From contig NC_087251.1 of the NCBI RefSeq assembly GCF_037042905.1, positions 42,286,001 through 42,350,000 of the forward strand: a DNA stretch of 64,000 nucleotides, in the 5' to 3' direction. The notes beneath the pieces are model-generated. The model saw nothing but the letters and a program-made list of their open reading frames with translations, was not told the DNA's origin and made no database searches. Both the position numbers and the translations under genes were made by a program. The DNA comes from Lytechinus pictus (Eukaryota). Positions 1-16,500 of this stretch are shown here, piece after piece (within the stretch, counting starts at the first letter, position 1; the number at the start of each line of letters is the position of its first letter).

Positions 1-474
1 TGGAAAATTCTGAGTATCCATCTCGCCCTGGAAAGAACATCCTTTGTAAACCCATCTCGAACATGTTCATGGTACGGCTGCACAATCCAGCTGCCGACCA
101 TACCTCAAGAAGTATTCTCCTTAACTGTCGTGGCGTTGGCAAAGAAGAATTCTTCTTGCCAGCCACTGCCACAGTAAGAGAAGACGGAAGCGAAACATGA
201 AATATAACACCCGGTGCCTCAGGGTATATACTTAAATCACTTCACGATCATCCACTTCTGACACAGTATGGAGCGTCGTTTTGGTGCTGATGACCCTTTG
301 GAAATAGCACACAGAAGGATGCATCTCATCTTATAAGTACACCATCAGGGAAGAGTAGAAGCTTCATGCAGCTACTTAACATCACACCTGAAGTCAGGTA
401 AAACGTTCCCTTACACTACTTCTTGTGATGTCAGCCAATCATCGGCGAGTAAAGCTACTATGAATAGACGGCTG

Positions 475-3400
475 CTACTCTGGCAGATCATACAGCCTCC
501 GGGCGTTTGCATTCGCCACAGTGACCACCTCCGCAAAGGTCTCCCCCCTTCTCATGGCTATCTCCTGAGCGAGCTCACCTAAATACATCGGTGTATTCGC
601 CACAAGGGATCGCTCCGGTTTAAAATAAGGAGCGTCCGTTTCCAGAAGCAACCTTTCGATAGGGGTGTCCCTCAGCGCCTCATCCTGGGGGCCAGTGAAT
701 TCTCTCACCTTCCCAGTGAAGCCGAAGTGCGCTTGGGGAAATGCTTCGGACCATGTTCTCCGCTCCTCTTTAACAAGTGTGCAGCAATGGAGGTGAATCC
801 TCTGTTGGCGGGAACAATGTTCAACCAGCAATCGTCGGACATCTCGACTGATAGCAGTAGCACATGGATCCCCGGATGACCCACATAGATGTAGGATTAA
901 CACCTTATTCCCTATGGGCATTCCCAGAATCTGGACCAACATGTTGATCTGCTGCTCCCAAGTCGTGTCCGGGATAGAGAAGTCCAGGCCCAGCTCAGAG
1001 ACACCACAAATCCGCTGGCTGGCCAATAGCGATCGCAGTCTACTCATCGTCTTCATAGTCACATTAGTGGCCTTCTTTGGATGAATACCAACTGCCACCT
1101 TCCAACGGGGGTCCTCTGGATACCAGATTCTTCCCCACCGTTGGGGGTCACAATAGTTAAGTATCCCTCCGGTCACACGCACCGGTTTCAATGGTAACCG
1201 CCCGGGACAAGCTCGAAGAGCAGAAACCCCTCGCATTCCCAGGTATTGCTCCATTCTGTCCAGGTGTAAGTGACTATCAATGACGATTGGAAGTCTATCC
1301 CCCTCATACTCCACCGGTGCTAGGCTAATTCGCCCCGCACGGCTAATGCCTGTCTCGACAGATTCGGATGACCTTGGTCTAACCACAGGAGAAGGTGACG
1401 CAACAGGAGACTCGTCTCTCTGCCATTCACCAACCTGGCCCCGCGGTGTAGCCGATGTAGCAATTGCCCCCTCAGCTCCCAACGGAACCTCTGATACCCC
1501 TGGGGTTATTAACTCGGCAGCCTCAACCTGACTCACTGAAGGAGCCTGGGAGTCCTCGAGTTCCTCAACAGAGATTATCCGAACTACTTCCACCCTCTGG
1601 AAAGACTCGACAACTTCAGTTTGTGTATTAGGCTTGGGCGAGACAGCTCCAAACCTTGGGAAACCTTCGGCCAAACTCAACCTAGGTTTCCGCTCCGGGG
1701 ATGGTTGGGCAATTGTGGGCACTGCCATTCTTTGAGGGAGGAAGTTGCCCAGCCCTCGTAACACAGCAGGCGGCCTCACCACCCCAGAAGTACCTGGTTG
1801 AAACGGAATACCAGCTCTAATGAACCCCTGTTCAAATGCAGAACGATGGAAGCCTAATGACGGGTTAACTAATAACTCCCTCCAATGTTCTTCTGGTGTT
1901 GGGTCTGACAAACCTTGTGCAGACACATCGCCCAATTTAGATCCAGCGGAAGGGAAGTTCATTCGGGAGTTGATAAGCAACTCCTCAGAACATTCACCTG
2001 GCTTTAGATCTGGAACAGGTGACTCACTCTGCACCTCCATGGGAATCTCTGACAACTCCTCAGAGAATGCCTCTACCAACGGAGGAATAGAGCTGGTCTC
2101 ATCTGCAGCATCCGCTTCTTCCGACTTACTCATGGCAGCGTTCGCCTTGTCGGGCCGACTGGCTGTCGCGGAAATCTCATGTGTAACTGGTCTACCAGCT
2201 GCCGCGGGAATCTCTCGCGTATCTGGTCTACCGGCAGCCGCGGGAATCTCACGCGTCTCTTGCCTACCAGCTGCCGCAGGAACTTCGCGTGTATCTGGCC
2301 TACCAGCTGCCGCAGGAACTTCGCGCCGGTCCAGACGAATAGCTGCTTCAGGAACTTCACTTGTGCTTAAGCTTCCCAGCCTCTGTATACGGTCGTGGTC
2401 CTCGCGTCCCAGCCTTCCAACAAGAAAACCCAGGACTCTCCAATGAAGGAGTGCTACCCAGGAACTCAAGGGACGTAGGCCTATTGGGACCGAGCATACC
2501 CAGCCCCGATTCCTCGCAAAGGCGACCATCTCGGCCTGCCCTCGCTGCGCGAGTATCCCCACAGGGTCCGGACGTTCTAGGTCGACAAACCGACACAGAG
2601 CATCCAATGACCTCGTACCGATTAAACAAAGGGAGATCTCCCTCAGCACTTCCTCTCGCAACCCACTAAGCTCCGGGCGAGGATAGACGCTGCCCTTATG
2701 CTCCTGGAAGCACTCCGGCATATGAGAATAAACATGCCATTTCAGCTTCCCAGCGATCGCCCCACAACCTGGTATTAAACAGGGCTTCTTATAATAGCGG
2801 CCCCTCTTTTCCGGTATTTCATGGGTTGGGGCCTCTGAAGGCATGGAGGAAAACCCAGCGTGGGTCTTTCTTCCACCTGCAGGGGGCCCACCGCGGTTAC
2901 GACTGCGGGAGCGGTTCCGCTTCCGGGACTCATCCCTACCCTGATGCGAACCTTGTGTGGTTGGGTGGACATTCCGGTCCGCCCCAACTGAAGACTGCCT
3001 GGGAGCCGGTCCGGGAGGCGGCCCGGCAAATTCGCCCCGCCTTTCCTCTCGAGGACGGCTCACTCTGGCAGCTGAAGCTAGATGCGGACGATCGCCCGGC
3101 CTGGCTTCGGATGTTCCGCTCCGAGTGGAGGCAGTGGGAGTTGGGCCATCACTTTCGCTCTGCCTCGCTCCTGCCGTGCCACTCTGAGTAGACGCATTTG
3201 GAGTTGGGCGAGCATCCTCGCTCTGCCTCCCTCCTGATCTTTCTGTCTGAGTGGGCGAACTAGGAGCCGGTTGGGCACCTTCGCCCTCCCTGGCTGCTGG
3301 CTCACCTCTCTGAGTAGATGCTCCGTAGGTGGAGCGAGCACTTCCGCTCTGCCCGGCACCTGAGCCACTACTCCGTGTAGAAGCTGGGGTCGAGCGAACA

Positions 3401-4212
3401 TCATCGCTCCGCTCAGTTTCTCGCTGATTATTTCTGCTCTGCGGCTGGCCAGAGGTTGGGCGATTGGCATTAGCCTGCCCGCCTTGTGGCTTGTTACCAG
3501 GCGCGGGCCTCTTCTTACGTCTCCCACCACGGGGACGCCTCCCACGCCCAGATTGCCCAGAGCTAGAAGCACCAGTCGGCTGACGGAAAGTCCCGCTGGA
3601 TGCCCTTCCAGCCGGCGGGTTGGCTGGGTGAACTCCACCTTGCCTTCCTGCCGCTGCATTAGCGGAACCTGCCGACTGGCCGCTTGCCGACGCGTTGGGT
3701 GATGCCGGCGGGCGAGGCACTCCACTCCGCCTGCCTGCCGCAACGTCCGCGTATGAGGCCGACTGGCGAAATCCCCCGCCCTGACTGCCTCGCTGGCCGC
3801 GGTTCTGATAGGGCCTGGGAGCCGGAATCTCCTCACCCGGGGTCCAGAACTCCTCGTCCCTATCCGGAGGGATGGACCACGCGTCCATTCCATTTTCAGG
3901 TACGTTGCGGTGCCCCTCAATGTTGGGGACATTTAACAATACCCATTCGCGGTCTTTGAAAGTGGTTCGTAACAACCAATACTGGAGGCAGGTTATCCAC
4001 CTCCAGTCCCTACGCCTGAATGCAAAGCCATGTTGCTTTACGGCCAAGCATTCAAACGCCATTGGTGACATTTTTGTCGCCGAACGGCACACAAATGAAG
4101 GGTGGAGCAAAATGCCCGCATCTGTGGCCCCCCACACCCTTCTCCTCACTTGCTCCTCGTAATCTTCTCCCTCCTCCTCCGCACGTCTAGGTCGTCTTGG
4201 CCATCGGGGCAT
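475..4212 (-). CDS. Retrotransposon ORF3 (1245 aa): long R/S/G/Q-rich disordered region, C2H2-like zinc motif, 12-aa repeats, C-terminal TatD-family DNase domain (~478-1290)
   Basis: TatD motifs IDSHLHLD, VGIHP, SELGLD, ILHL, IHLHC, FGFTG, LLLETDAPY, NARRLY; motif CLIPGC-x9-HVYSH at ~2720-2781. Confidence 0.9.
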   Translation of the reverse strand: MPRWPRRPRRAEEEGEDYEEQVRRRVWGATDAGILLHPSFVCRSATKMSPMAFECLAVKQHGFAFRRRDWRWITCLQYWLLRTTFKDREWVLLNVPNIEGHRNVPENGMDAWSIPPDRDEEFWTPGEEIPAPRPYQNRGQRGSQGGGFRQSASYADVAAGRRSGVPRPPASPNASASGQSAGSANAAAGRQGGVHPANPPAGRASSGTFRQPTGASSSGQSGRGRRPRGGRRKKRPAPGNKPQGGQANANRPTSGQPQSRNNQRETERSDDVRSTPASTRSSGSGAGQSGSARSTYGASTQRGEPAAREGEGAQPAPSSPTQTERSGGRQSEDARPTPNASTQSGTAGARQSESDGPTPTASTRSGTSEARPGDRPHLASAARVSRPREERRGEFAGPPPGPAPRQSSVGADRNVHPTTQGSHQGRDESRKRNRSRSRNRGGPPAGGRKTHAGFSSMPSEAPTHEIPEKRGRYYKKPCLIPGCGAIAGKLKWHVYSHMPECFQEHKGSVYPRPELSGLREEVLREISLCLIGTRSLDALCRFVDLERPDPVGILAQRGQAEMVAFARNRGWVCSVPIGLRPLSSWVALLHWRVLGFLVGRLGREDHDRIQRLGSLSTSEVPEAAIRLDRREVPAAAGRPDTREVPAAAGRQETREIPAAAGRPDTREIPAAAGRPVTHEISATASRPDKANAAMSKSEEADAADETSSIPPLVEAFSEELSEIPMEVQSESPVPDLKPGECSEELLINSRMNFPSAGSKLGDVSAQGLSDPTPEEHWRELLVNPSLGFHRSAFEQGFIRAGIPFQPGTSGVVRPPAVLRGLGNFLPQRMAVPTIAQPSPERKPRLSLAEGFPRFGAVSPKPNTQTEVVESFQRVEVVRIISVEELEDSQAPSVSQVEAAELITPGVSEVPLGAEGAIATSATPRGQVGEWQRDESPVASPSPVVRPRSSESVETGISRAGRISLAPVEYEGDRLPIVIDSHLHLDRMEQYLGMRGVSALRACPGRLPLKPVRVTGGILNYCDPQRWGRIWYPEDPRWKVAVGIHPKKATNVTMKTMSRLRSLLASQRICGVSELGLDFSIPDTTWEQQINMLVQILGMPIGNKVLILHLCGSSGDPCATAISRDVRRLLVEHCSRQQRIHLHCCTLVKEERRTWSEAFPQAHFGFTGKVREFTGPQDEALRDTPIERLLLETDAPYFKPERSLVANTPMYLGELAQEIAMRRGETFAEVVTVANANARRLYDLPE
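2160..2360 (-). repeat. About 5 copies of a 36-bp coding tandem repeat in ORF3 (REV/IPAAAGRPDT)
   Basis: Repeats visible in both the DNA and the translation. Confidence 0.85.
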
Positions 4213-4220
4213 CTTCGGAT

Positions 4221-4248
4221 CTGAAATACAAACAGAGGGGAAAACACC
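4221..4248 (-). promoter_or_regulatory. 3' splice acceptor just upstream of the ORF3 ATG
   Basis: Minus strand reads GGTGTTTTCCCCTCTGTTTGTATTTCAG|ATCCGAAGATG; the ATG at 4212 is 8 nt into the exon. Confidence 0.65.
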
Positions 4249-4356
4249 ATTAGAATTTGGAAATAACTTCCCTCTGTCTTATCTCCCAGACCCCATAAAT
4301 AATATACCAAGACCCACATGTCCATTAGAGGTTCTTGAGAAAAGGAGTGGATTTCC

Positions 4357-7300
4357 CTAGGTCCTAGATGCGCATCCCGGACAATGGTATTCTTCATCCA
4401 ACCCCAGCATCTCGCCTTCCTCTTCGGACATTCCCACGCACTGACCGTGGAACCATTCTTCGCATTTATCACACTGGATCATAAATTTTCCTCCCCAGGG
4501 CTTCCTGCAAAGGCAATACACCTCCTCGTGCCTGTGCTTCTTCCCTTTCTTATTCGGAGGAATAGTCCGATCTCTGCATGGTTTCATGCGGTCATGGTTC
4601 ACCGTCATCCTAACATTCTTATACTCGACCCGGTACAGGAATGGAGACAGTCTCTCCACAATCAATGCAGGACCTTTCCAGGGAGGGCAAAGTTTCTTGC
4701 ACTTCCCTTTGGATTGAGCCGTGTCCAACAAGTATACTCGTTCACCTACCTCATACTTCCTCTGGAACACTTTCATGTCATAGTCCTTTTTCTGTCTTTT
4801 TTGGGTCTCTTTTAGATGAGACCTGGCCAGCGAGTGTACATCGGCTAATGTCTTACGCAGATTCGCACAGTACTCCTCGCTTTCTACTGGTTGTGCTGCT
4901 TGCGGCATCGGGAACAGTAAGTCCACCGGTTGGGTCACTTCCCTTCCAAGCATTAGCCGGTTGGGAGTAAATCCGGTGCTTCTATTCACTGTTGATCGTA
5001 TGGCCCCTGCGATTTGAGGAACAAACTCGTCCCAACTTCGCTGGTTCTTGCCTACGAAACAACGCACTGCATCCATCAGCGTCCGGTTAAATCGCTCCAC
5101 CTGACCATTGGCCGAAGGACGATAAGCCGTTGTTCTCGCCTTATGTATTTGCAACATCTTACACATGCTTGTAAACAAACGACTCTCGAAATTACGGCCT
5201 TGGTCGGTGAAGACCTGCAGGGGACACCCGAAACGGCTGAAGAAATGGTCCACCGCTGCTCGGGCTGTCACTTCTGCGGTCTGTGAAGGCAAAGGTATGC
5301 ACTCCACCCATTTCGTGAATTGATCAACCATTACCAGGATATTCTCGTTCCCATTCGCCGTTTTTGGCAGGGGACCCAAGAAATCCAAGTGCACCCTTTC
5401 CATGGGGTAGCCAGCATGATAGCTGATCATAGGGTTCCTCCCGTGTCTGGCAGACTTCTTGCATTGGTTACAGGTTGGACATTTGCGGATAAAGTCACTC
5501 ACATCCTTCCCCATACCATACCAGAAGAACCGCCTCTTCATCTTGGAGATCACCCTTACATTGCCAGCATGCCCTGCCAAGGGCAAATCATGGTTAAGTC
5601 TAACCAATTCTTCCCTCATAGAGTGAGGAATGAGAAGTAAATCCCCTTCGCCCTTGTTCTGGTAAATTACCCCATTTTCCAGGTGAAATGTATCCTTGTT
5701 GATCCACAGGTTCTTCTGCTCGGGACTCCATAACATCATAGTTCCCTCGCTAGGTTCTTCACCTGTGGCCAACCATTCCCGTAATGGAAGAAATTCTGGA
5801 TCTTTGTCTTGTTCTTCTTTCAATCTCACGGCTGGGGGTGTTTCTGGCTCCTCGACCACCTGGGAGATATTCAGTTCCTCGGTGATCGGTCTGGAGCTCT
5901 CAACTACCTCGTCCGACCGTAAATCCGATCTCACGGCCGGGGGTGTTTCTGGCTCTTCGACCGCCTGGGAGATATTCTGTTCCTCGGCGATCAGCCTTGA
6001 GCTCTCAACTACCTCTTCCGACCGTAGATCAGGGTCCGATTTCACCACCATGTGGGTTGTCCAAAACCCTGACTCAAGGTTTTGGCCAATGGTGTTTTTC
6101 CGTTCTCCTGTGACTGATGCCAAGGGAACTACGTCATCCACCTCTTCTACAAAAGGAGCCCAGTTCCGGTGAGCCTTCTCACAGTAGGGGCACCCACCAC
6201 AAGGAAGATCTTCTAACTTGAATCCTAGCCGGAATTCTTCGCAGAAGAGCTCAGTGTCAGGAACTCGAGACAATGCGTCCGCATTCCCATGCTGTTTCCC
6301 CGGGCGGTGTATCACCTTCATCTGATACTGACTTAGTTCTTCCAACCATCGGGCTATTTGCCCTTGAGGATGTTTGAAGTTCATCAGCCAGATGAGACTA
6401 CTGTGATCTGTGCGCACCAAAAACGAGTTACCTAAAAGGTAGTGGCGGTACTGCCGTGTGAACTTCACCACTGCTAGGAGTTCTCTCCTTGTCACACAGT
6501 ACCTTCTCTGTTCGGGAGACAGTGATATGCTTCCGTAGGCCACTACTCTCTCTTGTCCATCCTGAACCTGGAGTAACTCCGCGCCGATAGCCTCATTCGA
6601 AGCATCGGTGTCCAGGATGAATGGATCCTGCAAGTTGGGCATGGTCAACACTGGGGCTGAGGTAAGCAGCTCCTTTATAGAGTCAAACGCCTCCTGTTGT
6701 TCAGGTCCCCAGCAGAACATGTTTTTCCCAGTGATCTTGTACAGAGGAACAGCCGCCGCTGCATAATTCTTGATGAAGGTCCTGTGATAGTTCACTAACC
6801 CCAAGAATCTCTCCACTTGTTTCGTGTTGCGCGGCGCTGGCCAATTCCTCACTGCTTCAATCTGATCTGGTTTCAGAGAGATCTTGTTTTCTCCTACATT
6901 CCGGCCCAGGAACTCTACCTCGCGCCGGAACAATTCACACTTCTTTGGTTTCAGCTTCAACTTGAAGCTTCTAAACCTTTCTAAGACCTCCCTCAAGTTA
7001 TTCATGTGATCCTCAAAAGACTTTCCCAGAACTACTACATCATCGAGGAATGCTAGGACTATGTCCCAATTCAAACCTCTTAAGATTAAGTCCATGGCTC
7101 GTGAGAAAGTCGCGGGAGCGTTGCACAATCCAAAACCCATCCTCACAAATTCGTACAATCCGTACTTTGTGGTGAAAGCAGTCTTCTTGCGATCCTCTTC
7201 CGCTATTTGGACTTGCCAATACGCAGAGTTCGCATCCAGCTTGGAAAACCAACGCGTCCCGGAAAGGGTATCCAGACACTCCTCGATATTCGGGAGGGGA

Positions 7301-8592
7301 TATACATCTTTCTGAGTGATCTGATTGAGTCCTCGGTAATCTACACACCAGCGGACTCCCCCATCTCTCTTCCGTACCAGTACAGGTGCAGACGCCCACT
7401 CCGATTGTGAAGGCTGAATAACCCCAGCCTCCTTCATTCGTTTCAGCACTGCCTTTTCTTCTTCTGCGAAACGCATCGGCGTTCTTCGCATCTTGTGCTT
7501 TACTGGGGCTGATGTACCTGTCTCTATCTTGTGCTCAATAGCTGTAAATTCTCCTAAGTCGAAGTCGTGACGGGCAAACGCGTCTCCGAACTCCCCCAGG
7601 ATACGCCTAAGTTCAGCTTCCTGTTCAGAGTTCAAGAGTTCCGAAGATCGGTCATACAAATCCTGTAAATGTTCTGGCACCTCTTCCGCCACGTCCTCTG
7701 TTAAGCAGTTGACTTTAGGTTCCAGCTCTTGAGGCGCCGAATGTGACCTGGTTTCCTCATCTCTTTCTGGAAGAGAAGATGGCACCTGAGCCACAGCCAC
7801 TGCCTCGAAGACCCGGCCTATTATCTTGTTGCCCTCCAGATGGACTACTCTGTCGGTTGGGTTCAAAACATACAGTTGAATGAGCGTACCTCCGTCATGT
7901 AGCGACCTAGGTGCTAGAGCGGGTAATACGGATGATGGCTCAAAAACACAAGCGTTCATCCTCTGGTCTATTACCCCGGTGACACGCTTCAGTGTGTTGG
8001 GTGGGATGGTGGTCCGGTGTGAGGTGCTAACTCTGGCTACTCGTCCACCATTCCGACCAACTCCGAACTTCATGGGTATCCGTTCATCCCCCATAAGCAG
8101 CTCCTTACTACTTATAAGGATATCGATTGAATGCTGCTCAAGAAAATCTAGCCCCAACAGCATGTCATCCGCTATCGATGCTGTGTAAATGTTACCGGGA
8201 AAACACTTTCTTCCAATTCCTACCTCCACTGGGCCGATCACTGCTCCTTGCAAGCGTGTATCTCGGCCAGCGGTGCTCAAAACAACTTCCTTCACCAGGG
8301 GCGGGGCAGGGTCAAGTAGTTTCATCACTCGATCCGAGATAATGGTCACTTCTGCAGCAGAATCTACCACTGCGTCAAGTGTAACGCCATTCACCTTTAC
8401 CTCTACTCTCAGCATCGAGGACGAACGAAGTTGACAGACCACTACCTCCTGCGGAGATTCCAACTCCGGTTCTTCCCATTGGGTAGGGAGGACGTTGCTC
8501 TCTTCTTCACCAGCTGATAATTCTACCTCTGAGGAATGCGGATCCTCGTCTTCCAGTTCCAGTTGGTTTACATATTCCGCTAACACCTTCAT
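4357..8592 (-). CDS. pol: Gypsy Pol polyprotein: aspartic protease, reverse transcriptase, RNase H, integrase, C-terminal PHD finger; probably translated by -1 frameshift from gag (frame open from ~8745)
   Basis: PR AVVDSAAEVT; RT RWCVDYRGLN, KTAFTT, FGLCNAPATF, FLDD; RH ILDTDAS, TDHSSL; IN HDLPLAGH...CPTC, VHLDFLGP, TDQGRNF, NGQVERFN, WKGP; PHD YCLC...MIQCDKCEEWFHGQC...CPGC. Confidence 0.97.
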   Translation of the reverse strand: MKVLAEYVNQLELEDEDPHSSEVELSAGEEESNVLPTQWEEPELESPQEVVVCQLRSSSMLRVEVKVNGVTLDAVVDSAAEVTIISDRVMKLLDPAPPLVKEVVLSTAGRDTRLQGAVIGPVEVGIGRKCFPGNIYTASIADDMLLGLDFLEQHSIDILISSKELLMGDERIPMKFGVGRNGGRVARVSTSHRTTIPPNTLKRVTGVIDQRMNACVFEPSSVLPALAPRSLHDGGTLIQLYVLNPTDRVVHLEGNKIIGRVFEAVAVAQVPSSLPERDEETRSHSAPQELEPKVNCLTEDVAEEVPEHLQDLYDRSSELLNSEQEAELRRILGEFGDAFARHDFDLGEFTAIEHKIETGTSAPVKHKMRRTPMRFAEEEKAVLKRMKEAGVIQPSQSEWASAPVLVRKRDGGVRWCVDYRGLNQITQKDVYPLPNIEECLDTLSGTRWFSKLDANSAYWQVQIAEEDRKKTAFTTKYGLYEFVRMGFGLCNAPATFSRAMDLILRGLNWDIVLAFLDDVVVLGKSFEDHMNNLREVLERFRSFKLKLKPKKCELFRREVEFLGRNVGENKISLKPDQIEAVRNWPAPRNTKQVERFLGLVNYHRTFIKNYAAAAVPLYKITGKNMFCWGPEQQEAFDSIKELLTSAPVLTMPNLQDPFILDTDASNEAIGAELLQVQDGQERVVAYGSISLSPEQRRYCVTRRELLAVVKFTRQYRHYLLGNSFLVRTDHSSLIWLMNFKHPQGQIARWLEELSQYQMKVIHRPGKQHGNADALSRVPDTELFCEEFRLGFKLEDLPCGGCPYCEKAHRNWAPFVEEVDDVVPLASVTGERKNTIGQNLESGFWTTHMVVKSDPDLRSEEVVESSRLIAEEQNISQAVEEPETPPAVRSDLRSDEVVESSRPITEELNISQVVEEPETPPAVRLKEEQDKDPEFLPLREWLATGEEPSEGTMMLWSPEQKNLWINKDTFHLENGVIYQNKGEGDLLLIPHSMREELVRLNHDLPLAGHAGNVRVISKMKRRFFWYGMGKDVSDFIRKCPTCNQCKKSARHGRNPMISYHAGYPMERVHLDFLGPLPKTANGNENILVMVDQFTKWVECIPLPSQTAEVTARAAVDHFFSRFGCPLQVFTDQGRNFESRLFTSMCKMLQIHKARTTAYRPSANGQVERFNRTLMDAVRCFVGKNQRSWDEFVPQIAGAIRSTVNRSTGFTPNRLMLGREVTQPVDLLFPMPQAAQPVESEEYCANLRKTLADVHSLARSHLKETQKRQKKDYDMKVFQRKYEVGERVYLLDTAQSKGKCKKLCPPWKGPALIVERLSPFLYRVEYKNVRMTVNHDRMKPCRDRTIPPNKKGKKHRHEEVYCLCRKPWGGKFMIQCDKCEEWFHGQCVGMSEEEGEMLGLDEEYHCPGCASRT
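5823..6030 (-). repeat. 105-bp (35-aa) in-frame tandem duplication in the RNase H-integrase linker
   Basis: DLRSEEVVESSRLIAEEQNISQAVEEPETPPAVR followed by DLRSDEVVESSRPITEELNISQVVEEPETPPAVR. Confidence 0.9.
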
Positions 8593-8645: not shown

Positions 8646-10853
8646 CTATTGTTGCTCGAGCCAGGGTGTGGCCTCCCTCTCCTCCTCTGACTCGCTCGAG
8701 TTTGACGCCTCCTCTTCCCTGAGGACCGAAGCGGAAGCCACGGGGCTTTTATCAGGACAATCTTTCCTAAAATGTCCCGGCTTACCACACTTGAAACAGC
8801 CCTCAGTCCTGGGTGCAGGGGATGGCGATCTCCCTCGTCTTCCTATTTGTGACATTCTTCTATTAAGATTATCCATGGAGGACTGCAGTTTCTCGAATTT
8901 CTCATCCCAATCGGAAACCCTCTCCTCCAAAGCCCGCGTGCGATTATCCAACGCTGACACCAACTTGGTCAAGCTTTCACCCTCTGAAGATATCTTACTC
9001 GAAGTGCCAGGCACTGAGCTGTTCTTCTCCAGCCGGGGTTTATTAGCTGGCGGGGGGGCACCAATCTGTTGGATCACTGCCTCTTCAGATGACCAAGCAT
9101 CTTGTGGCCAATGGACTATCTTGACCTCTGGTCTCCTCTGCCTGCCATACACAACCTTTTTCGAATGTATATACCAAGTCACATGATCCACAGCCTTCTC
9201 AACTGAGTCCGGCCGTAAGTTCAGGGCGTGCAAACCAGCTTCCCGTTCAGAACACCCCTGACAAAACTTCAATACCCCTTGTCTCTGTACTTGAGACTCC
9301 GGAACCCCTGGGAAAGTTTTAACAGCCAGGCTGACCACACGGTCAGCCCACTCCATGATTCCTTCCTCAGCCAGCTGGTGCGCCCGCATGAACTCCATTT
9401 GAGCTACCTCTAGAGGATCATCCGCGCCAAACCGGCGCTCCATCCTCCTCACCAGATCTTCAAAAGACATGTCTCTGTCACGCGACATCAGTAATGAGAA
9501 ATAGTCACTTCCAATACCTTTCATGCACCACCACATCTGATATTTCCTTTGAATGGAGGACCAGCCCTGCTCATCCGCATAGGCCATGAACTTGAGGTAA
9601 AACCCTCTCCAGCTCCCTCGACCATCATAGTTAATGGTCTTGGGGAGCGAACCCATGTGGCTCAATGACTGTGAACCCATTTGCCTGGAGCGGCCAGTAG
9701 TCTTGTGTGTAGAGATATTCCCCGAAGACTGGCTAGTGGTGGGGCTCTGGGGTAGCTGATGTGTTGCGGCCTGGTGCGGCTGGAACGCCCTTGACTGTGG
9801 TGGTGCCGGCTGGCAAGCTGTTGTTTGGACTTGCATCTGATTAGTCTGTGCATGTCGAGATGATGGGACTTGTGATACCGGCGTTGTTGTCATCTGATAG
9901 GATCCAACCGCTGCCGGTTGCACTGGCGGTGCCGCCTGCGGCTGCGGCAGTGGAGCCGCTGGTAGCTGTGGCGGCGCCTGTGGCGGTACCTGTGACGTTG
10001 CGGGCGCCTGCGCGCACCTCAGCGGTACACGCGTATACCATACAGTAGGCATGCGCGGCACTGGGGCCGCTGTTACTCTTGGCGGAGGGCCAGCCGATAA
10101 CTGCGGCGGTGGACCCACTGGGTCTACAAGAGGTTGGGTCGTCGCACTTTGTGGTGATTCTGTCGCTAACAGCTGGGCCGGTGGAACCAATGGGGCTCGT
10201 GGTGTTGCCGGCACTGTGGGTGGGCCAGATAGCCGCCTGACTGAAACATCATACTCCGACAAGTTGGGACCTGGTCTGGTCTGATGTAAGATCTGATGGG
10301 GTTCTTGGCCCCCAGTGCCTGGTTGTGAAGTTGGAGCTTGCACCCTTTCCAGCTGGGCTGGGCGTAAGACCTGCTGTGAGGGATTAACTTGCAACCCCTC
10401 CTGTAAAACTCTACCACCAAAGCCTGGGTGGGACTCTGACTGCCACCACCTCTCGGATACTCCTGGAGGGGGCGGATACCTCTGCCACCGATAAAATGCT
10501 GGGCTAACCTCCTGCACCGGGCTGGGTGCATGGGAAGACTGAAACAACTCTCCATCCGCTCCTATAGGTTCACCCATGATACCTCTATCATGATCCAGCA
10601 ACCCTTGTGCAAGCCCAGTAGACTGTTGTGATGCCGTACTAAAGGGCGTGAAGTCAAGCTGATCCAAAACCTCTTCCGGCAATGAAACCAATGACGAGAA
10701 ATAATCCCTTGTGATACCACCTTTACGTTCCAACAGCAAGCCTGCCACAGCATGACTTACTCCTGGAATGCCCACGAGTTCGTCATATGAACACTCGTTC
10801 ACCGGAAGTGGGCCTTCAATAACCTCAAAAGGGCTTACTATATCTGACAACAT
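8646..10853 (-). CDS. gag: Gag-like protein (735 aa): N-terminal HhH-like motif, P/Q-rich linker, capsid-like core, coiled coil, CCHC zinc knuckle
   Basis: YDGRGSWRGFYLKF-type Gag core; CFKCGKPGHFRKDC knuckle; lies directly upstream of pol. Confidence 0.92.
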   Translation of the reverse strand: MLSDIVSPFEVIEGPLPVNECSYDELVGIPGVSHAVAGLLLERKGGITRDYFSSLVSLPEEVLDQLDFTPFSTASQQSTGLAQGLLDHDRGIMGEPIGADGELFQSSHAPSPVQEVSPAFYRWQRYPPPPGVSERWWQSESHPGFGGRVLQEGLQVNPSQQVLRPAQLERVQAPTSQPGTGGQEPHQILHQTRPGPNLSEYDVSVRRLSGPPTVPATPRAPLVPPAQLLATESPQSATTQPLVDPVGPPPQLSAGPPPRVTAAPVPRMPTVWYTRVPLRCAQAPATSQVPPQAPPQLPAAPLPQPQAAPPVQPAAVGSYQMTTTPVSQVPSSRHAQTNQMQVQTTACQPAPPQSRAFQPHQAATHQLPQSPTTSQSSGNISTHKTTGRSRQMGSQSLSHMGSLPKTINYDGRGSWRGFYLKFMAYADEQGWSSIQRKYQMWWCMKGIGSDYFSLLMSRDRDMSFEDLVRRMERRFGADDPLEVAQMEFMRAHQLAEEGIMEWADRVVSLAVKTFPGVPESQVQRQGVLKFCQGCSEREAGLHALNLRPDSVEKAVDHVTWYIHSKKVVYGRQRRPEVKIVHWPQDAWSSEEAVIQQIGAPPPANKPRLEKNSSVPGTSSKISSEGESLTKLVSALDNRTRALEERVSDWDEKFEKLQSSMDNLNRRMSQIGRRGRSPSPAPRTEGCFKCGKPGHFRKDCPDKSPVASASVLREEEASNSSESEEEREATPWLEQQ

Positions 10854-11083
10854 GATGTATCAATTAAAAATAACAACTTTCCAAAACACAAAATTACCTT
10901 AAAACCCAATTGGGTAACACCCCACTCCCCGTCAAACAAAAAGGCGAACCACCGGGGTGAGAAAAAACCCTAAAGACAGAAATCAGCACCTGCAAAGAAA
11001 AATATACCAACGCTTAGTCGGCCTAAACTAACAAGTACCAACTCTTCGGTGGTCTAAGAAAAAAACGAAGTCCAAACACAGCA

Positions 11084-11538
11084 GAATTAATCTCTAAATG
11101 TAGTAGAAAAAATAATCCAGGAAAGGTGTCCCTTTAAGTTCAGAAAACACAAGAATTAATTTCTAGATGTAGAAAAAATAATTCGAGAAAGGTGTCCCTT
11201 TAACTTCAAAAGACCCACGAATTAATATCTAGATGTAGAAAAAATAATTCGAAAAAGGTGTCCCTTTAACTTCAGAAAACCCCCGAATTAATATCTAAAT
11301 GTAGAAAAAATAATTCAGGAAAGGTGTCCCGTTAAGTTTAGAAAACACAAGAATTAATTTCTAAATGCAGAAAAATAATTCTAAAACGGTGTCCCTTTAA
11401 CTTCAAAAGACCCACGAATTAATATCTAGATGTAGAAAAAATAATTCGAGAAAGGTGTCCCTTTAACTTCAAAAGACCCACGAATTAATATCTAGATGTA
11501 GAAAAAATAATTCGAAAAAGATGTCCCTTTAACTTCAA
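11084..11538. repeat. Leader tandem array A: 7 units of ~66 bp
   Basis: Unit GAATTAATWTCTAGATGTAGAAAAAATAATTCGARAAAGGTGTCCCTTTAACTTCA... starts at ~11084, 11153, 11219, 11285, 11351, 11416, 11482. Confidence 0.93.
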
Positions 11539-11746
11539 ACACCAAAGTCAAATGCTAGATTCTGAAGAAGAATTCAAGATCACGTAAAGGACCCTAGCCC
11601 GGTAAGCTAGGAAAGTGTGCATCAAACGTCCAAGTCAAGAAGGTAACAGAACCTTGTAGCTCTAATTGTAGTCCAAATGTAAACACACCAGAAAAATAAA
11701 TACTAACACCTATCGTTAGTCTAAAAAAATATAACAACAACAGGGG

Positions 11747-12355
11747 GACTAAGACGGGAGACTTATCCCTTTAATCCAAAATTAATCCTTATAACAGTCA
11801 CAAATAATCCGGAAATAACTAGACTAAACGGGGAGACTTATCCCTTTAATCTAAAAATATTTTTGTAAAGAGCCAAAAAATATTTTTATACCGCTAAACT
11901 AAACAGGGAGACTTATCCCTTTAATCCAGAAATATTTTTGTAAAGAGCCAAAAAATATTGTATACAGCTAGACCAAACAGGGAGACTTATCCCTTTATTC
12001 TAGAAATATGGTTGCAGAAAGCTGAAAAATATTTTATTACAGCTAAACTAAAGAGGGAGACTTATCCCTTTAATCTCAAAATATTTTTGTAAAGAGCCAA
12101 AAAATATTTTATACAGCTAAACTGAACAGGGAGACTTATCCCTTTAATCTAGAAAATATTTTTGTAAAGAGCCAATAAATATTTTATAACAGCTATACTA
12201 AAGAGGGAGACTTATCCCTTTAATCTCAAAATAGTTTTGTAAAAAGCTGAAAAATATTTTATCACAGCTAAACTAAAGAGGGAGACTTATCCCTTTAATC
12301 CACAGATATTTTTGTAAAAAATAATGTGAGTCAGGAACTATGTCCCTTTAATCCA
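11747..12355. repeat. Leader tandem array B: 8 units of ~75 bp plus a partial unit
   Basis: Core GGGAGACTTATCCCTTTA recurs at ~11756, 11831, 11906, 11980, 12055, 12130, 12205, 12280. Confidence 0.93.
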
Positions 12356-13125
12356 ACTCAGCGTATCACGCAAATATCTAGAAATAAGATAGACGAATAG
12401 GTCTCAGCGGAAAGTCTACCCCTGTTCTTACAAACAAGATATAAAATAAAATATAAAAGAAATCAAAAACTAGCCTAGAATATGTAGCACAGCCCAACTA
12501 GGAACTGCAACTACTCCGTCACTCTGACAGATCGATGCAGGCGCCAGACACACTCTCACTGCTAGATCTATGAAAACGCTATCGGTATGACGACAGGCAC
12601 ACTCTCACTGTTCGGGTCGGTCAAAACGAAACGATAGTGCTATACGCCGCAGGTCACAACGAAACGATATTGCTAGACGCCTTAAACGATACCCACACTC
12701 TACACGGCAGATCGTAAGCTCCGTGCCCAATGTGACCGCTGCGATACCAAAACGATATCCAAAGCCAACGGAAAATCCCCAAAACGCACGTGGAGAAATA
12801 TTCACCTCGAGATGGTTGCGAGGGAGCGCGATAGATAATTGAACAACTTGAGCAAGTTCAATCACCACTCGAAAAGTTTGCAAATCACTAAAACGTGAAT
12901 CTAAATAACACACAACACAAGCTCAGCACCCTGCAAAATATCACAAGCTCAGCCCCGGAAAGTTAACAGTCCCACTGTCACCCTCTCCCCCGCCAACGCA
13001 AGCAAATTTCACCCCGTACTGACGCATGTGCGATAGACACAATAAATCACTGCTGACCGCCACCGAGCAAGCAGCGGGCAGCTATAGGCCTAGCAGTCAC
13101 CACGACTCCGCAAACGCGATTCGCA

Positions 13126-13140
13126 CTGCTGACTACGCCA
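13126..13140 (-). promoter_or_regulatory. Primer binding site complementary to the tRNA-Ser 3' end
   Basis: Minus strand TGGCGTAGTCAGCAG, 1 nt inside the LTR end; the usual tRNA-Ser PBS is TGGCGTAGTCGGCAG. Confidence 0.88.
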
Positions 13141-13141
13141 A

Positions 13142-13570
13142 TGTTGTTCGAGTGCTCAGTTCGAACAATCTTAAAAGTGGAAATGTACTGCACAAAAGAC
13201 GAAATACATGCATCACATATATTCAGTCAAAAGTATATTGACTCACCGTAAGTTCTGTCCCACGATGAATCCAGTAGAACAACTGAACAGGTAGAAAACA
13301 GCAATATAACTCAGCAATAACAACAGTATAACTTCTCAATAGGTTGGTTCCAGTACATCTCTCAGCAGTATCCAAAGATGGCGATGCCGTCCGCATCCTC
13401 CATCACGGGGTGTCGAATCCCTGCTTCTGATTGGTCACCTCTGGTGAAGTTGCACGCGGCACTACATCTTGGCTTGCCATGAGGTCTCCAGCAGCAGACG
13501 ACGATGGTAGCAGACGACAAGGATCAGTAGCTGAAAACGCCAAATCGGCCTGGCCGTTTTCACTACAACA
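13142..13570 (-). repeat. 5' LTR (429 bp)
   Basis: Inverted ends TGTTGT...ACAACA abut the PBS; contains a CCAAT box (minus, ~13430), a YY1-like CGCCATCTT (minus, ~13375-13383) and a GTGAGT donor (minus, 13241-13246). Confidence 0.85.
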
Positions 13571-16500
13571 TGTACGAGTATGACTGTCAGTGGACCAAGG
13601 AGTCGGACTAGATCTAGATCTACTCTCGGTCAATAATGGCAATGAAGTCTTAGCCAGGAATAAAAGTCATAGTCAGACATCAAAAATTTCTAAACCGATT
13701 TTAGGGTTTAGAACCGAAGCTTTACTTTCTAGGTCTAGATAGATCGAGAGTCCATCTTTAGTCTAGATCTAGACCTAATTTAGATACATGAATGCTGTCG
13801 CACAGCATTGAGTCTCGTTGGACTAGATCTATACTTTCTTACAAATAGATCTAGACCTAGTGCATGAGATTATGAAATTATGTTAAAATCTAATGAAATA
13901 AGATTCGGAAATAAAAAGATCCAGATTTTTTTTTTTTTTGGGGGGGGGGGGGGCAGACATGTGAAAAAATTTAGAGAAACCTAGAATTCAGAAAGCGAGG
14001 GCCAGAAGCGACCAATATTACCTAGGGCCGTTTTGTGCATTTTCTAAAGTAAAATTGAAGGATGTCATGCAATTCTCTTTTTGATGAAGGTTTTCACATT
14101 TCTGATTTCAGCTCTTACCCAAACCCCTCCCCCTATACATACGGCCATGAAAAAGATCACTTCTTATTATTGTTCTCTCTCTTTCACAAACAGGTTGAGT
14201 TTGAAGAACAAGAAAAACAGTAGAGGTCTATATATGGTTCAAGATGATGATCATAAGTGCATGCATCATTTTGCAGATTCTCATCCAGGTATAAAACTTA
14301 AACTAACCCATACAAAATTACAGATACATTGCATGCATTGAATGTTAACCATGTTTACATTAAATAAAAATAATCTGAGCTACAAAGAGGTAGGATCTGT
14401 AATGAATATACACTTCTTAAATATACAGGCTCTCGAGTCTAAAATAGAACCAATGCCAAAAGTTATGTACCTTGGACAAATTTATAAAATAAGGTCATGT
14501 CCTTGATCTACTAGTAATTAAATGGCCTTTTTATTTCCTATTTGTTTATAAACAAAGTGTAGGGATTGATTTTGTACTTATATTTCTTTCCACTCTTATC
14601 CAGGAATCATCCCCTTTTTCTAATAGAACATCCCTCATTTATATTCACCCTTTTCATCCTAACTTCCTATTCTTCATGTATAGCTCTCTCTTACACATTA
14701 ACTGCTGTACACTCCGTACACAAGGTTCTTTGGTATCAATTCACTCCACCATCCTTCATACAGCTTTCTTCACTCCTCTCTCTCTCTCTCACTCTCCTTC
14801 CTTGGTTATAATGTTAAGTTGATGCACTCAAGCTTAGATAATAATTTGCATATAGTTTGAATGGTCAATATATATCCTTTGTTTGTATATTTGAATATTC
14901 AGTTATACTTTGTTAATTGATTTACATTTATATGAATATTGATGTGCCTTAATTAATTTGCATGGAATGTTACAAAGAATGCAACAAGGCTTTGAGTCAT
15001 TAAAATCTGGGAGTTGGCCAGTAAGTTATCAACCTGACAACATGTCTGCTGGGCTGCCTCTGTGTTAAGAGTACTAGAAATGAGATATTGTCAGAACCCC
15101 GTACTACACAAAGCAATATTTATTTTTCATATTTTACAAAATTCATTTTATGCATTCTTTAGTGTGATATTCATATTTCATATTTGTAGATTTACGATTT
15201 TTTTTAAATCTTGTTATTTTACATTTTGTCCAATAGGATGATGCAGTTTTACAATTTCCATGGAGGTGATTGATGATGATAAACAATTGGTGAAGTAGGC
15301 CTAATAGAACAGTGATAGGACCACAAAGAGAAATACAACCTACAGCAGTTATATGAGTGAGTTAATAAGTGATTATTTTTAATAATGGGGGGTTTTCACA
15401 ATATTTTTAGGCAACAAATAGACCTGCCTTTGAAAAAAACATTTCAATTCTGTTTTTAGGTTATAGATAGGTGTCGTTTTTATTCGCAGATCAAAATATT
15501 CTGTGCAACAAAACATCATCTTTAATTCTGACTATTATATATAATTTATATATGTTAATTCATATATTCATATTTATGGGAAATCTCTGACATTTTTTTT
15601 ATATAGTACATGTAGTTATAATGGAGAGTGGTATGCAAACTGCATAGAACAGGTTTAAGTGATATGCTTTGTAGAAGTACAAGTTTATAATTAGTAGAAG
15701 TAAGATTTCCTATGTTATGTGATGAAGAAATTTATATACCGGTATGTATAGTCTTACTTTTCTTAAAACATTTATGTTTTACAAATCATGACAATTTTAA
15801 TTTAAATTCATTGATTTTCTTTCTCTATTTTTTCAATCTGCAGGACTGGTGTAACAGATGTTTTCATTCAAGAAACCCAACAAATTGAAGAGTGACTTAG
15901 CTTAGGAAGCACTTGATAAAGATGGAAAAGGTTTTTTTTTTTCAAGTCCAATTTTTTTTTTTTAAATTATCATCACAACCCCAAATTCATGAAGTATGAA
16001 ATTTCCTGTCGATTTTCATTAAAACTGGTTGCAAAAGGAAAAGCTATAAACATACAAATAGGAGCGGCGAAGTGAAGTTGAAAGTGGGGGGGGGGGCACA
16101 GGGAAAATGCTGTATTATGTGAAATTTTAAAGAAGTTGCGAGAGAGCAAAATTTTGACATTTTAAAAAAGAAAATCCAATTTTGTGATAGATTTCGACAA
16201 AATATTCAGAATGATATATTTCACCCTTTTTTTTTGGGGGGGGGGCAAGAGTCCTTCAGGCCCCCCCCCCCCTCCATCTGTAGTGTACGAAACTGCTTAT
16301 CTACCCCCACTCACATGAATTATTAAACTTAATGCACAAAGGATTTCCTTATTGTTTTCTTGTTTCAAAGGGCACTCGTCATTCTTTAGGAGCACTTTTC
16401 TTGGATAAATGGGGGCAGTTATTCGAGAAAGGGCACTTACAAGAAGGCGAGGGGGTACTTTTTAACACTTAAAACGGGCCCTCAGATGAAAGGGCACAGA

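Follow-up and report, generated by a model that had tools for sequence, protein, structure and literature searches.

Long terminal repeat (LTR) retrotransposons with an enzymatic third gene are known from few cases, namely an exonuclease and an esterase in rotifers, and dUTPase. The closest described counterparts of the gene reported here are the third open reading frames (ORF3) of the rotifer Gypsy-like elements Juno and Vesta, which lie downstream of pol and encode a DEDDy exonuclease rather than an envelope (Env) protein; an auxiliary role in 3'-end processing was proposed for them (Rodriguez, Kenefick, Arkhipova 2017, PMC5408684). As far as the accessible text of that paper goes, these ORFs have intact catalytic residues, no transmembrane segment or coiled coil, and closer relatives among transposable elements (TEs) than among cellular homologues, and the ORF3 types named (DEDDy exonuclease, GDSL esterase, and dUTPase) do not include TatD. 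In this study, a 64,000-nt stretch of the sea urchin Lytechinus pictus genome (C7:42286001-42350000, contig NC_087251.1; hereafter the window) was analyzed. A complete Ty3/Gypsy LTR retrotransposon of 14.8 kb on the minus strand of this contig (the C7 copy) carries an ORF3 that ends in a TatD nuclease domain. Judged by sequence comparison, this ORF3 is very probably a conserved, functional TatD gene encoded by the element.

The urchin ORF3 shares the features named above with its rotifer counterparts, but the fold differs, being of the RNase D/DnaQ type in the rotifer proteins and an amidohydrolase-type TIM barrel here. Furthermore, the rotifer ORF3s are described in the accessible text as family-specific, gained at least twice, and without departure from neutrality (PMC5408684), whereas the urchin TatD ORF3 occurs clade-wide, co-diverges with the integrase, shows purifying selection, is found in at least three phyla, and contains a conserved CCHH/helical domain. 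Identity of ORF3 as a rotifer-type DEDDy exonuclease was rejected, as Pfam detects TatD_DNase alone. In its position after pol and its probable expression from a spliced subgenomic mRNA, ORF3 resembles retroviral and errantiviral env genes of Ty3/Gypsy elements (as described in the accessible part of PMC13524379), but unlike env it has no signal peptide, transmembrane segment, or features of a fusion glycoprotein. A second likeness, of architecture only, is to human and other vertebrate TATDN2, described in the accessible sections as a protein with a long disordered N-terminus and a C-terminal TatD domain (PMC10711561; PMC12709183). By motif position, E593, E705, and D707 of TATDN2 correspond to E1073, E1191, and D1193 of ORF3. 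A proposed match by spacing of the TATDN2 'catalytic-site cysteines' C538 and C656 to the conserved C1021 and C1143 of ORF3 was dropped, since E. coli TatD also has the second one. Unlike TATDN2, ORF3 is intronless, multi-copy, and located between pol and an LTR. A single-copy host gene of the TATDN2 type was likewise discarded as an identity for ORF3, there being two copies with 99% identity on separate contigs, along with dozens of related ORFs that follow a pol gene.

The two LTRs of the C7 copy are identical over all 426 bp, stand in direct orientation, and each begin with TG and finish with CA. A 4-bp target-site duplication, ATGT, flanks the element at both ends (13568-13571, and again past the 3' LTR), a stretch resembling a primer-binding site (PBS) follows the 5' LTR, and a purine run (polypurine tract) precedes the 3' LTR. 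ORF3 therefore lies inside a complete Gypsy element, which is uninterrupted and was inserted very recently, its LTRs not having diverged yet. Assignment to Gypsy is based, by Pfam and sequence, on a gag with a CCHC knuckle, the pol order protease, reverse transcriptase, RNase H, and integrase (PR-RT-RNH-IN), paired LTRs, and the target-site duplication.

TatD_DNase (PF01026) was the only Pfam family detected in ORF3 and was matched over profile positions 1-252 of 253 (E 4.6e-30; 105.3 bits at a cut-off of 27). The characteristic motifs were located at aa 979-983 (DSHLH), 1072-1077 (SELGLD), 1106-1111 (ILHLCG), 1140-1144 (HLHCC), and 1191-1196 (ETDAPY). In a 16-sequence alignment with a mean column identity of 23%, the metal-site columns D, S/A, H, H, D, E, H, H, E, and D were invariant or at least 90% conserved. 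The AF2 model of the domain consists of eight strand-helix units (pLDDT 94.1, pTM 0.91), and its top Foldseek matches were the TatD/YcfH structures 6l25, 1yix, and 1xwy (E ~1e-15, TM 0.6-0.8). An Atlas search of the TatD part confirmed the family. Scored with a family profile, E. coli YcfH ranked first (7e-31), followed by E. coli TatD (2e-26), YjjV (1e-15), TATDN3 (1e-13), and TATDN1 (8e-9), and YcfH was also the best PDB match of the profile, over its full length. These proteins (YcfH, TatD, YjjV, TATDN1, and TATDN3; 1yix, 6l25, 1xwy, 1zzm, 2xio, 2y1h) have the same fold and metal-binding motifs as the ORF3 domain, but are stand-alone cellular proteins of ~260-300 aa with 15-25% identity to it in structural alignments. 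The ORF3 TatD is predicted to be a catalytically complete, YcfH/TATDN2-like metal-dependent nuclease.

Regarding Env, the highest 19-residue Kyte-Doolittle mean in ORF3 was 1.52 and lay within the TatD barrel, and the N-terminal 40 aa contained no hydrophobic core and no evident signal peptide. An earlier note, made from the letters of the DNA alone, had described an intronless 1245-aa ORF, 144 nt past the pol stop codon on the same strand, that ends in a full TatD domain and is not an Env. The ORF coordinates (the distance from the pol stop codon to the ORF3 ATG is exactly 144 nt), the Pfam and structure searches of the C-terminus, the motifs it had quoted (DSHLH, SELGLD, ILHL, LHC, and ETDAPY, all present), and the hydropathy values bear out this description. 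It had also expected a copy of the LTR to the left of the window; an identical twin is located there, but the right boundary of the 5' LTR had to be moved from 13570 to 13567.

In the remainder of ORF3, a disordered region of basic character comes first, then a CCHH zinc-finger/helical domain that is novel, and then a repeat linker, with the TatD domain following. The low-complexity region contains a basic stretch, RGRRPRGGRRKKRP, that resembles a nuclear localization signal (NLS), and the N-terminal half of ORF3 is hypervariable among homologues. The zinc-finger module (aa 471-640) was found in 58 of 154 homologues by BLASTP; in a 41-sequence alignment, C478, C483, H493, and H497 were invariant and the LxHWR motif nearly so. 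In its predicted fold, which has core pLDDT values above 90, a helical bundle comes after a small zinc finger. No Pfam family, no Foldseek match at E<=0.001, no convincing neighbour among 48,161 PDB chains (VIA-align, best Z 3.5), and no family in an Atlas search (best score 0.84) were found for this module.

The tie of TatD to a Gypsy clade was evident from two directions. With the TatD domain as query, tblastn returned 88 genomic matches, or 69 loci once merged. Many of these are intronless open frames of 430-1267 aa with 36-42% identity, several of them in near-identical multiple copies. Each of the three other TatD ORFs examined in full context (37-42% identical) sits immediately behind a PR-RT-RNH-IN pol with 54-57% identity to the C7 pol. 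In the opposite direction, tblastn was run with the integrase-PHD part of pol, and 101 of 1159 candidates were scored. These split sharply into 36 clade matches at 48-100% identity, mostly spanning the PHD finger, and 65 matches at <=44% identity that end before it. Of the 36 clade integrases, 28 are followed on their own strand by a TatD match at a distance of 0.5-3 kb, whereas none of the 65 others has one within 15 kb on either strand. Nine diverged families of the clade were compared; their TatD identities are 35-51%, their integrase identities 56-76%, and the catalytic residues are conserved. The integrase clades {C2:68M, C13} and {C14:18M, C5:50M, C11, C5:24M} both recur in the TatD tree, and no supported conflict was seen among the nine families; TatD branches were two to three times longer than integrase branches. 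One gene model (P0007) fuses the PHD finger to TatD. TatD is an ancestral accessory gene of the whole Gypsy clade, neither a passenger nor a recent capture by the C7 element.

As a side observation, an open frame of 2165 aa at C11:23762680-23764730 contains the integrase match and extends to a TatD match 501 bp downstream; in this family copy, pol and ORF3 may be read as one frame.

Selection on ORF3 was assessed among copies. For the TatD domain within five families of near-identical copies, 5 nonsynonymous and 10 synonymous changes were counted, with about three quarters nonsynonymous expected under neutrality (binomial p 0.0008). Between the C7 copy and the C17 copy, the nonsynonymous and synonymous counts were 12 and 9 for ORF3, 1 and 3 for TatD, and 2 and 6 for pol. 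Compared with the C5:48M subfamily, omega was 0.26 for ORF3 aa 16-544 and 0.13 for pol, and compared with a decayed copy at C2:34M it was 0.32 for ORF3 aa 905-1095. Overall, dN/dS ranged from 0.1 to 0.4; between families, synonymous sites are saturated. These values show purifying selection on ORF3.

The earlier note had expected a dN/dS away from 1 among copies and a TatD behind the integrase in other elements, and both agree with the omega values of 0.13-0.32, the 5:10 count in TatD, and the 28 clade integrases, to which the contig JBEVXV010000655.1 described below is added. Its proposal of a captured nuclease serving the element holds in that ORF3 is a selected element gene between pol and the 3' LTR; a recent capture does not hold, the gene being ancestral to the clade. 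The roles that the note had suggested for the nuclease, such as proofreading or clearing of cDNA, are speculative.

Proteins of the ORF3 type are not restricted to L. pictus. A HMMER search of 1.84 billion cluster representatives yielded 3938 matches at E<=1e-3 and 148 at E<=1e-30; in most of the 150 matches listed, TatD is located at the C-terminus of a 400-1100-aa protein. Among 30 cluster representatives looked up, 11 had an organism name, 2 a function name only, and 17 no name. Six clusters are from sea urchins (three from Lytechinus variegatus and one each from Diadema antillarum, D. setosum, and Strongylocentrotus purpuratus), and the other named clusters are from the bivalves Mya arenaria and Pecten maximus and the brachiopod Lingula anatina, with two more filed under a Sedimenticola metagenome-assembled genome (MAG). 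The 90% cluster of Mya arenaria has 13 members, most of them on different contigs, and one L. pictus database protein differs hardly at all from one of the ORF3s in this genome. In the source databases, such proteins are named 'putative deoxyribonuclease TATDN2', 'YcfH-like', or 'mucin-17-like'. TatD-pol linkage itself was examined in the L. pictus genome and in JBEVXV010000655.1. A metagenome scan with the TatD alignment gave 553 relatives, of which 80 were retained; their identity to the query was 23-33% throughout, a level that would fit bacterial-type TatD.

Contig JBEVXV010000655.1 (11,691 bp; L136) carries matching LTR ends 11,411 bp apart, a gag containing a CCHC knuckle, and a 773-aa ORF ending in TatD. 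Its pol, of 1400 aa and likewise with a PHD finger, has 52% identity to the C7 pol. On the level of sequence, the contig provides independent evidence for the gag-pol-TatD layout outside the L. pictus genome. The contig is filed under a bacterial MAG (Sedimenticola sp.) and yet is a eukaryotic Gypsy element. Because the MAG includes another ORF3-type protein, P0028, it probably holds animal DNA.

A FastTree phylogeny was calculated from 166 TE-type and 11 bacterial-type TatD domains, after removal of 132 of 300 rows in which fewer than 226 residues were aligned. The TE-type domains separated from the bacterial-type ones with 99% local support. A single 56-row clade (support 94) took in every named urchin sequence and the nine L. 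pictus families; Mya fell into another clade, and Pecten together with Lingula into a third.

A further observation concerns the S. purpuratus model P0164 (1337 aa), in which a gag-like part (aa 4-445, 30-36% identical to the C7 gag) is joined to ORF3 (aa 450-1337), pol being skipped. It is either a real spliced gag-ORF3 mRNA, a pol-deleted element, or a prediction artefact. At the equivalent gag N-terminus of P0164, a weak Pfam HHH_3 match was found (E 8e-4, under the cut-off), and aa 1-35 of the C7 gag (window 10750-10853) resemble a helix-hairpin-helix motif.

Expression of ORF3 from a spliced subgenomic mRNA, as in retroviral env, is inferred because an acceptor signal is conserved before ORF3 and because an LTR donor is in use. 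A polypyrimidine tract with CAG precedes ORF3 in five of five families (C7, L030, L031, L032, and, after the pol stop codon, JBEVXV010000655.1), the sequences being unalignable. RNA was represented by three rRNA-depleted runs labelled as L. pictus, of which ~6% each was read. Per run, 21, 11, and 8 reads fell on the whole element, most of them on the 5' LTR and in sense orientation, assuming the usual stranded protocol. At the GTGAGT donor near 13246, 23 reads (15 in X6 and 8 in X7) leave the LTR. An LTR promoter and donor are thus active somewhere. Parts of ORF3 are covered by contigs of a further run, X1, which may consist of DNA and not RNA.

Several results weigh against ORF3 as a functional and clade-wide gene of the element, or against its proposed expression and role. 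In the genome, 8 of the 36 clade integrases have no TatD match nearby, and 41 of the 69 TatD loci, mostly fragments, have no clade integrase upstream. For four sampled full-length TatD ORFs, neither pol nor gag was matched within the preceding 2-2.5 kb, and six copies that share the LTRs lack ORF3 (C1, C3:63.8M, C16, C8, C5:22.6M, and the more distant C3:76.05M). In the three RNA runs, at the depth given above, no read fell on ORF3 and none joined the LTR donor to the ORF3 acceptor. Instead, the donor reads continue into a 30-base sequence that occurs once in the assembly, at C5:14598246-14598275. The TatD tree is without cellular eukaryotic TatD and thus silent on the source of the domain. 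Finally, pol already has an RNase H domain, so that a second nuclease for hybrids is not obviously needed.

The donor reads look like an LTR-driven chimeric transcript, perhaps from an insertion that is not in the reference; among the 40 matches listed, no LTR copy was found on the contig of this junction. The four ORFs without pol or gag upstream (C4:20313731-20314525, C15:31243155-31243970, C18:26152719-26153516, and C17:19043000-19043815) are located in open frames of 363-1180 aa. They may represent elements that were truncated, or else genes that stand alone and are possibly domesticated.

Seven LTR pairs at 98-100% identity were found in the genome, and only two of these copies, C7 and C17, have ORF3. 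In the C17 copy all three ORFs are open, with amino acid identities to the C7 copy of 99.3% (gag), 99.8% (pol), and 99.0% (ORF3). In the copies without ORF3, a common 990-bp module replaces window positions 434-4265. Most of pol is lost in five of them (C3:63.8M, C16, C5:22.6M, C3:76.05M, and C8). The gag region of four of these pol-depleted copies (C3:63.8M, C16, C5:22.6M, and C3:76.05M) is just 77% identical to that of the C7 copy, and nonetheless their LTRs are 98-100% identical to those of the autonomous element; the gag of C8 is 95% identical. The C1 copy is 99.5% identical in gag and pol, and its pol reads in two frames. Since near-identical LTRs are combined with such a diverged gag, a non-autonomous lineage that recombines with the autonomous element is suggested. 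The copies lacking ORF3 are read as this lineage plus a recombinant rather than as the ancestral state. The earlier note had held that family copies lacking ORF3 would speak against its proposal; six such copies do exist, and they are interpreted here as non-autonomous or recombinant derivatives. Older relatives with ORF3 joined to the end of the same pol were found at C5:48.05M (89-93% nucleotide identity) and C10:30.25M (84%), and decayed ORF3 pieces at C2:34.07M (71-74%). The 990-bp module itself (L014:2748-3680, contig C1) contains a 193-aa ORF built of repeats that resemble pol aa 194-307.

The overall explanation that we favour, and consider probable, is a very recently inserted Gypsy element whose ORF3 TatD is an ancestral gene of its clade. 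As to function, and by analogy, ORF3 may process replication intermediates of the element, a role that we put forward tentatively. A spliced subgenomic mRNA would give rise to the ORF3 protein, which would act in the nucleus as a Mg-dependent 3' exo/endonuclease and would be brought to the nucleic-acid intermediates of the element by its zinc finger and basic region. The most likely substrates would be the RNA strand of RNA:DNA hybrids, or the 3' ends of single-stranded cDNA or RNA, with cleavage taking place during reverse transcription or before integration. This role on RNA/DNA intermediates is favoured because of the analogy to TATDN2, the nearest analogue with functional data: for the human protein, the accessible part of the report describes R-loop binding that depends on the long disordered N-terminus, and Mg2+-assisted degradation of the RNA strand of R-loops by the C-terminal TatD domain (PMC10711561).

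An unlikely alternative is a counter-defence nuclease, directed at nucleic acids of the host or of competitors and not at productive intermediates. It would clear abortive cytosolic cDNA or RNA:DNA hybrids so that innate DNA sensing is avoided, or would destroy small-RNA precursors or the cDNA of rival elements. TREX1-type clearance of reverse transcripts offers a comparison. The conserved TatD domain with apparently intact catalytic residues, its two- to threefold faster evolution relative to the integrase, as expected of a gene in conflict, and the hypervariable N-terminal half are all consistent with such a function. However, the catalytic and zinc-finger domains are, as far as measured, under purifying and not diversifying selection, and the NLS-like basic stretch points to a location in the nucleus.

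Bacterial and human TatD enzymes have reported AP-endonuclease and 3'-5' exonuclease activities, so that membership of this family also fits a repair enzyme that rescues reverse transcripts damaged by a host deaminase or glycosylase, by AP-site cleavage or 3'-end cleaning, in parallel to retroviral dUTPase. There is precedent in the dUTPase and exonuclease genes documented in LTR elements, according to the accessible text of PMC5408684. We regard this explanation as quite improbable: the TE-type TatD is nearest to the YcfH branch (7e-31) and not to the TatD/TATDN1 branch credited with DNA activities (2e-26 and 8e-9), and nothing in the sequence points to recognition of damaged DNA.

The same proximity to YcfH, the best PDB match of the family profile over its whole length, and the name 'YcfH-like' that NCBI gives to some urchin homologues would be in line with processing of the primer tRNA. 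YcfH and Synechocystis dtd3 hydrolyse D-aminoacyl-tRNAs, as stated in the accessible discussion of PMC10711561, and a similar ORF3 could deacylate or trim the minus-strand primer tRNA and free its 3' OH. This reading, which is drawn by analogy alone, is very improbable, since the 16-base PBS complement matched no tRNA gene in a genome search and was present in 8 element copies only. We know of no need of retroelements for an aminoacyl-tRNA hydrolase activity.

That ORF3 arose from a host TATDN gene as a processed copy, recently picked up by or adjoining one element and without a role, is barely credible in spite of the NCBI label 'putative deoxyribonuclease TATDN2' for close homologues and the six copies lacking ORF3, and is contradicted by the present evidence: ORF3 lies inside an element flanked by target-site duplications and was carried along to a second chromosome, all nine families at 35-51% TatD identity and JBEVXV010000655.1 have it behind pol, omega is well below 1, and the best cellular TatD in the PDB reached only E 4e-11 in a single-sequence search, compared with 148 TE-type clusters at E<=1e-30.

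The features of the element are listed in Table 1.

Table 1. Features of the C7 element, in window positions
Feature	Position	Strand	Details
5' LTR	13142-13567	minus	426 bp, TG...CA ends
LTR splice donor	13241-13247	minus	ACG/GTGAGT; RNA reads
PBS-like stretch	13123-13140	minus	TGG...; 1 nt past 5' LTR
5' leader with two tandem-repeat arrays	11042-11610; 11744-12341	minus	66-nt units; 75-nt units
gag	8646-10853	minus	735 aa; CCHC zinc knuckle (Pfam zf-CCHC)
pol	4357-8592	minus	1411 aa; PR, RVT_1, RNase H, Integrase_H2C2, rve, C-terminal PHD (Pfam)
Polypyrimidine tract and CAG, predicted 3' splice site	4221-4247 (AG 4222-4221)	minus	8 nt before ORF3 ATG
ORF3	475-4212	minus	1245 aa, ATG start, intronless
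Low-complexity basic region	2803-3807 (ORF3 aa 136-470)	minus	G/S/R/A/P-rich, net charge +30
CCHH zinc finger and helical domain	2293-2802 (ORF3 aa 471-640)	minus	C478, C483, H493, H497; LxHWR 588-592
36-nt tandem repeats in ORF3 linker	2150-2329	minus	12-aa unit, REVPAAAGRPDT-like
TatD nuclease domain, TIM barrel	490-1281 (ORF3 aa 978-1241)	minus	Pfam, structure model
3' untranslated region	1-474	minus	runs ~825 bp past window edge to polypurine tract and 3' LTR
3' LTR	-1250 to -825 (C7:42284750-42285175)	minus	left of window edge

The GC content is ~50-60% across the left 13.6 kb of the window, compared with ~31-43% in the remainder. No tRNA gene was found in a search of the 64-kb window, and an Rfam scan of it gave no match. 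BLAST matches across the repeat arrays of the leader vary from copy to copy. Between the RNase H and integrase parts of pol, an acidic unit of 35 aa is repeated, being encoded by a 105-nt tandem duplication (window 5823-6030, 90% identical). The integrase terminates in a PHD finger (pol aa 1360-1407, window 4357-4500) and not in a chromodomain. Most families of the clade have the finger, their integrase matches reaching query residues 408-412, while the C13 family (L031) lacks it. In general, retrotransposons with PHD fingers are known (PMC6673714, accessible part).

In the literature searched by title and abstract (Repbase and subscription journals being outside the search), no TatD retroelement gene was described; a TatD nuclease as a clade-wide, selected retroelement gene thus appears to be undescribed in searchable papers. 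The TatD ORF occupies the env position in echinoderms, for which the accessible text of a 2026 survey of env-carrying Gypsy elements reports no env-bearing Ty3/gypsy and does not mention TatD (PMC13524379). ORF3 also defines a new conserved zinc-finger/helical domain. A systematic annotation error became apparent, in that retroelement ORF3s are named TATDN2, YcfH-like, or mucin-17-like, or are binned in a bacterial MAG. Such mislabelled ORF3s inflate host gene counts and could mislead evolutionary statements on TATDN2. In the paper on the giant squid genome, a 'TATDN2' is named as one of the transposon-like genes within the Hox cluster, and this may be an unrecognised ORF3 of this kind.

It is conceivable, though fairly improbable, that the 'TATDN2-like' genes of marine invertebrates are largely ORF3s of this Gypsy clade and that ORF3 and metazoan TATDN2 have one origin, either by an ancient capture or with TATDN2 as a domesticated ORF3. 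If so, the element would carry its own RNase for hybrids or R-loops, targeted by a zinc finger and made from an env-like spliced mRNA. For the TatD enzymes, whose cellular roles are debated, the finding provides a defined genetic context, that of reverse transcription and integration.

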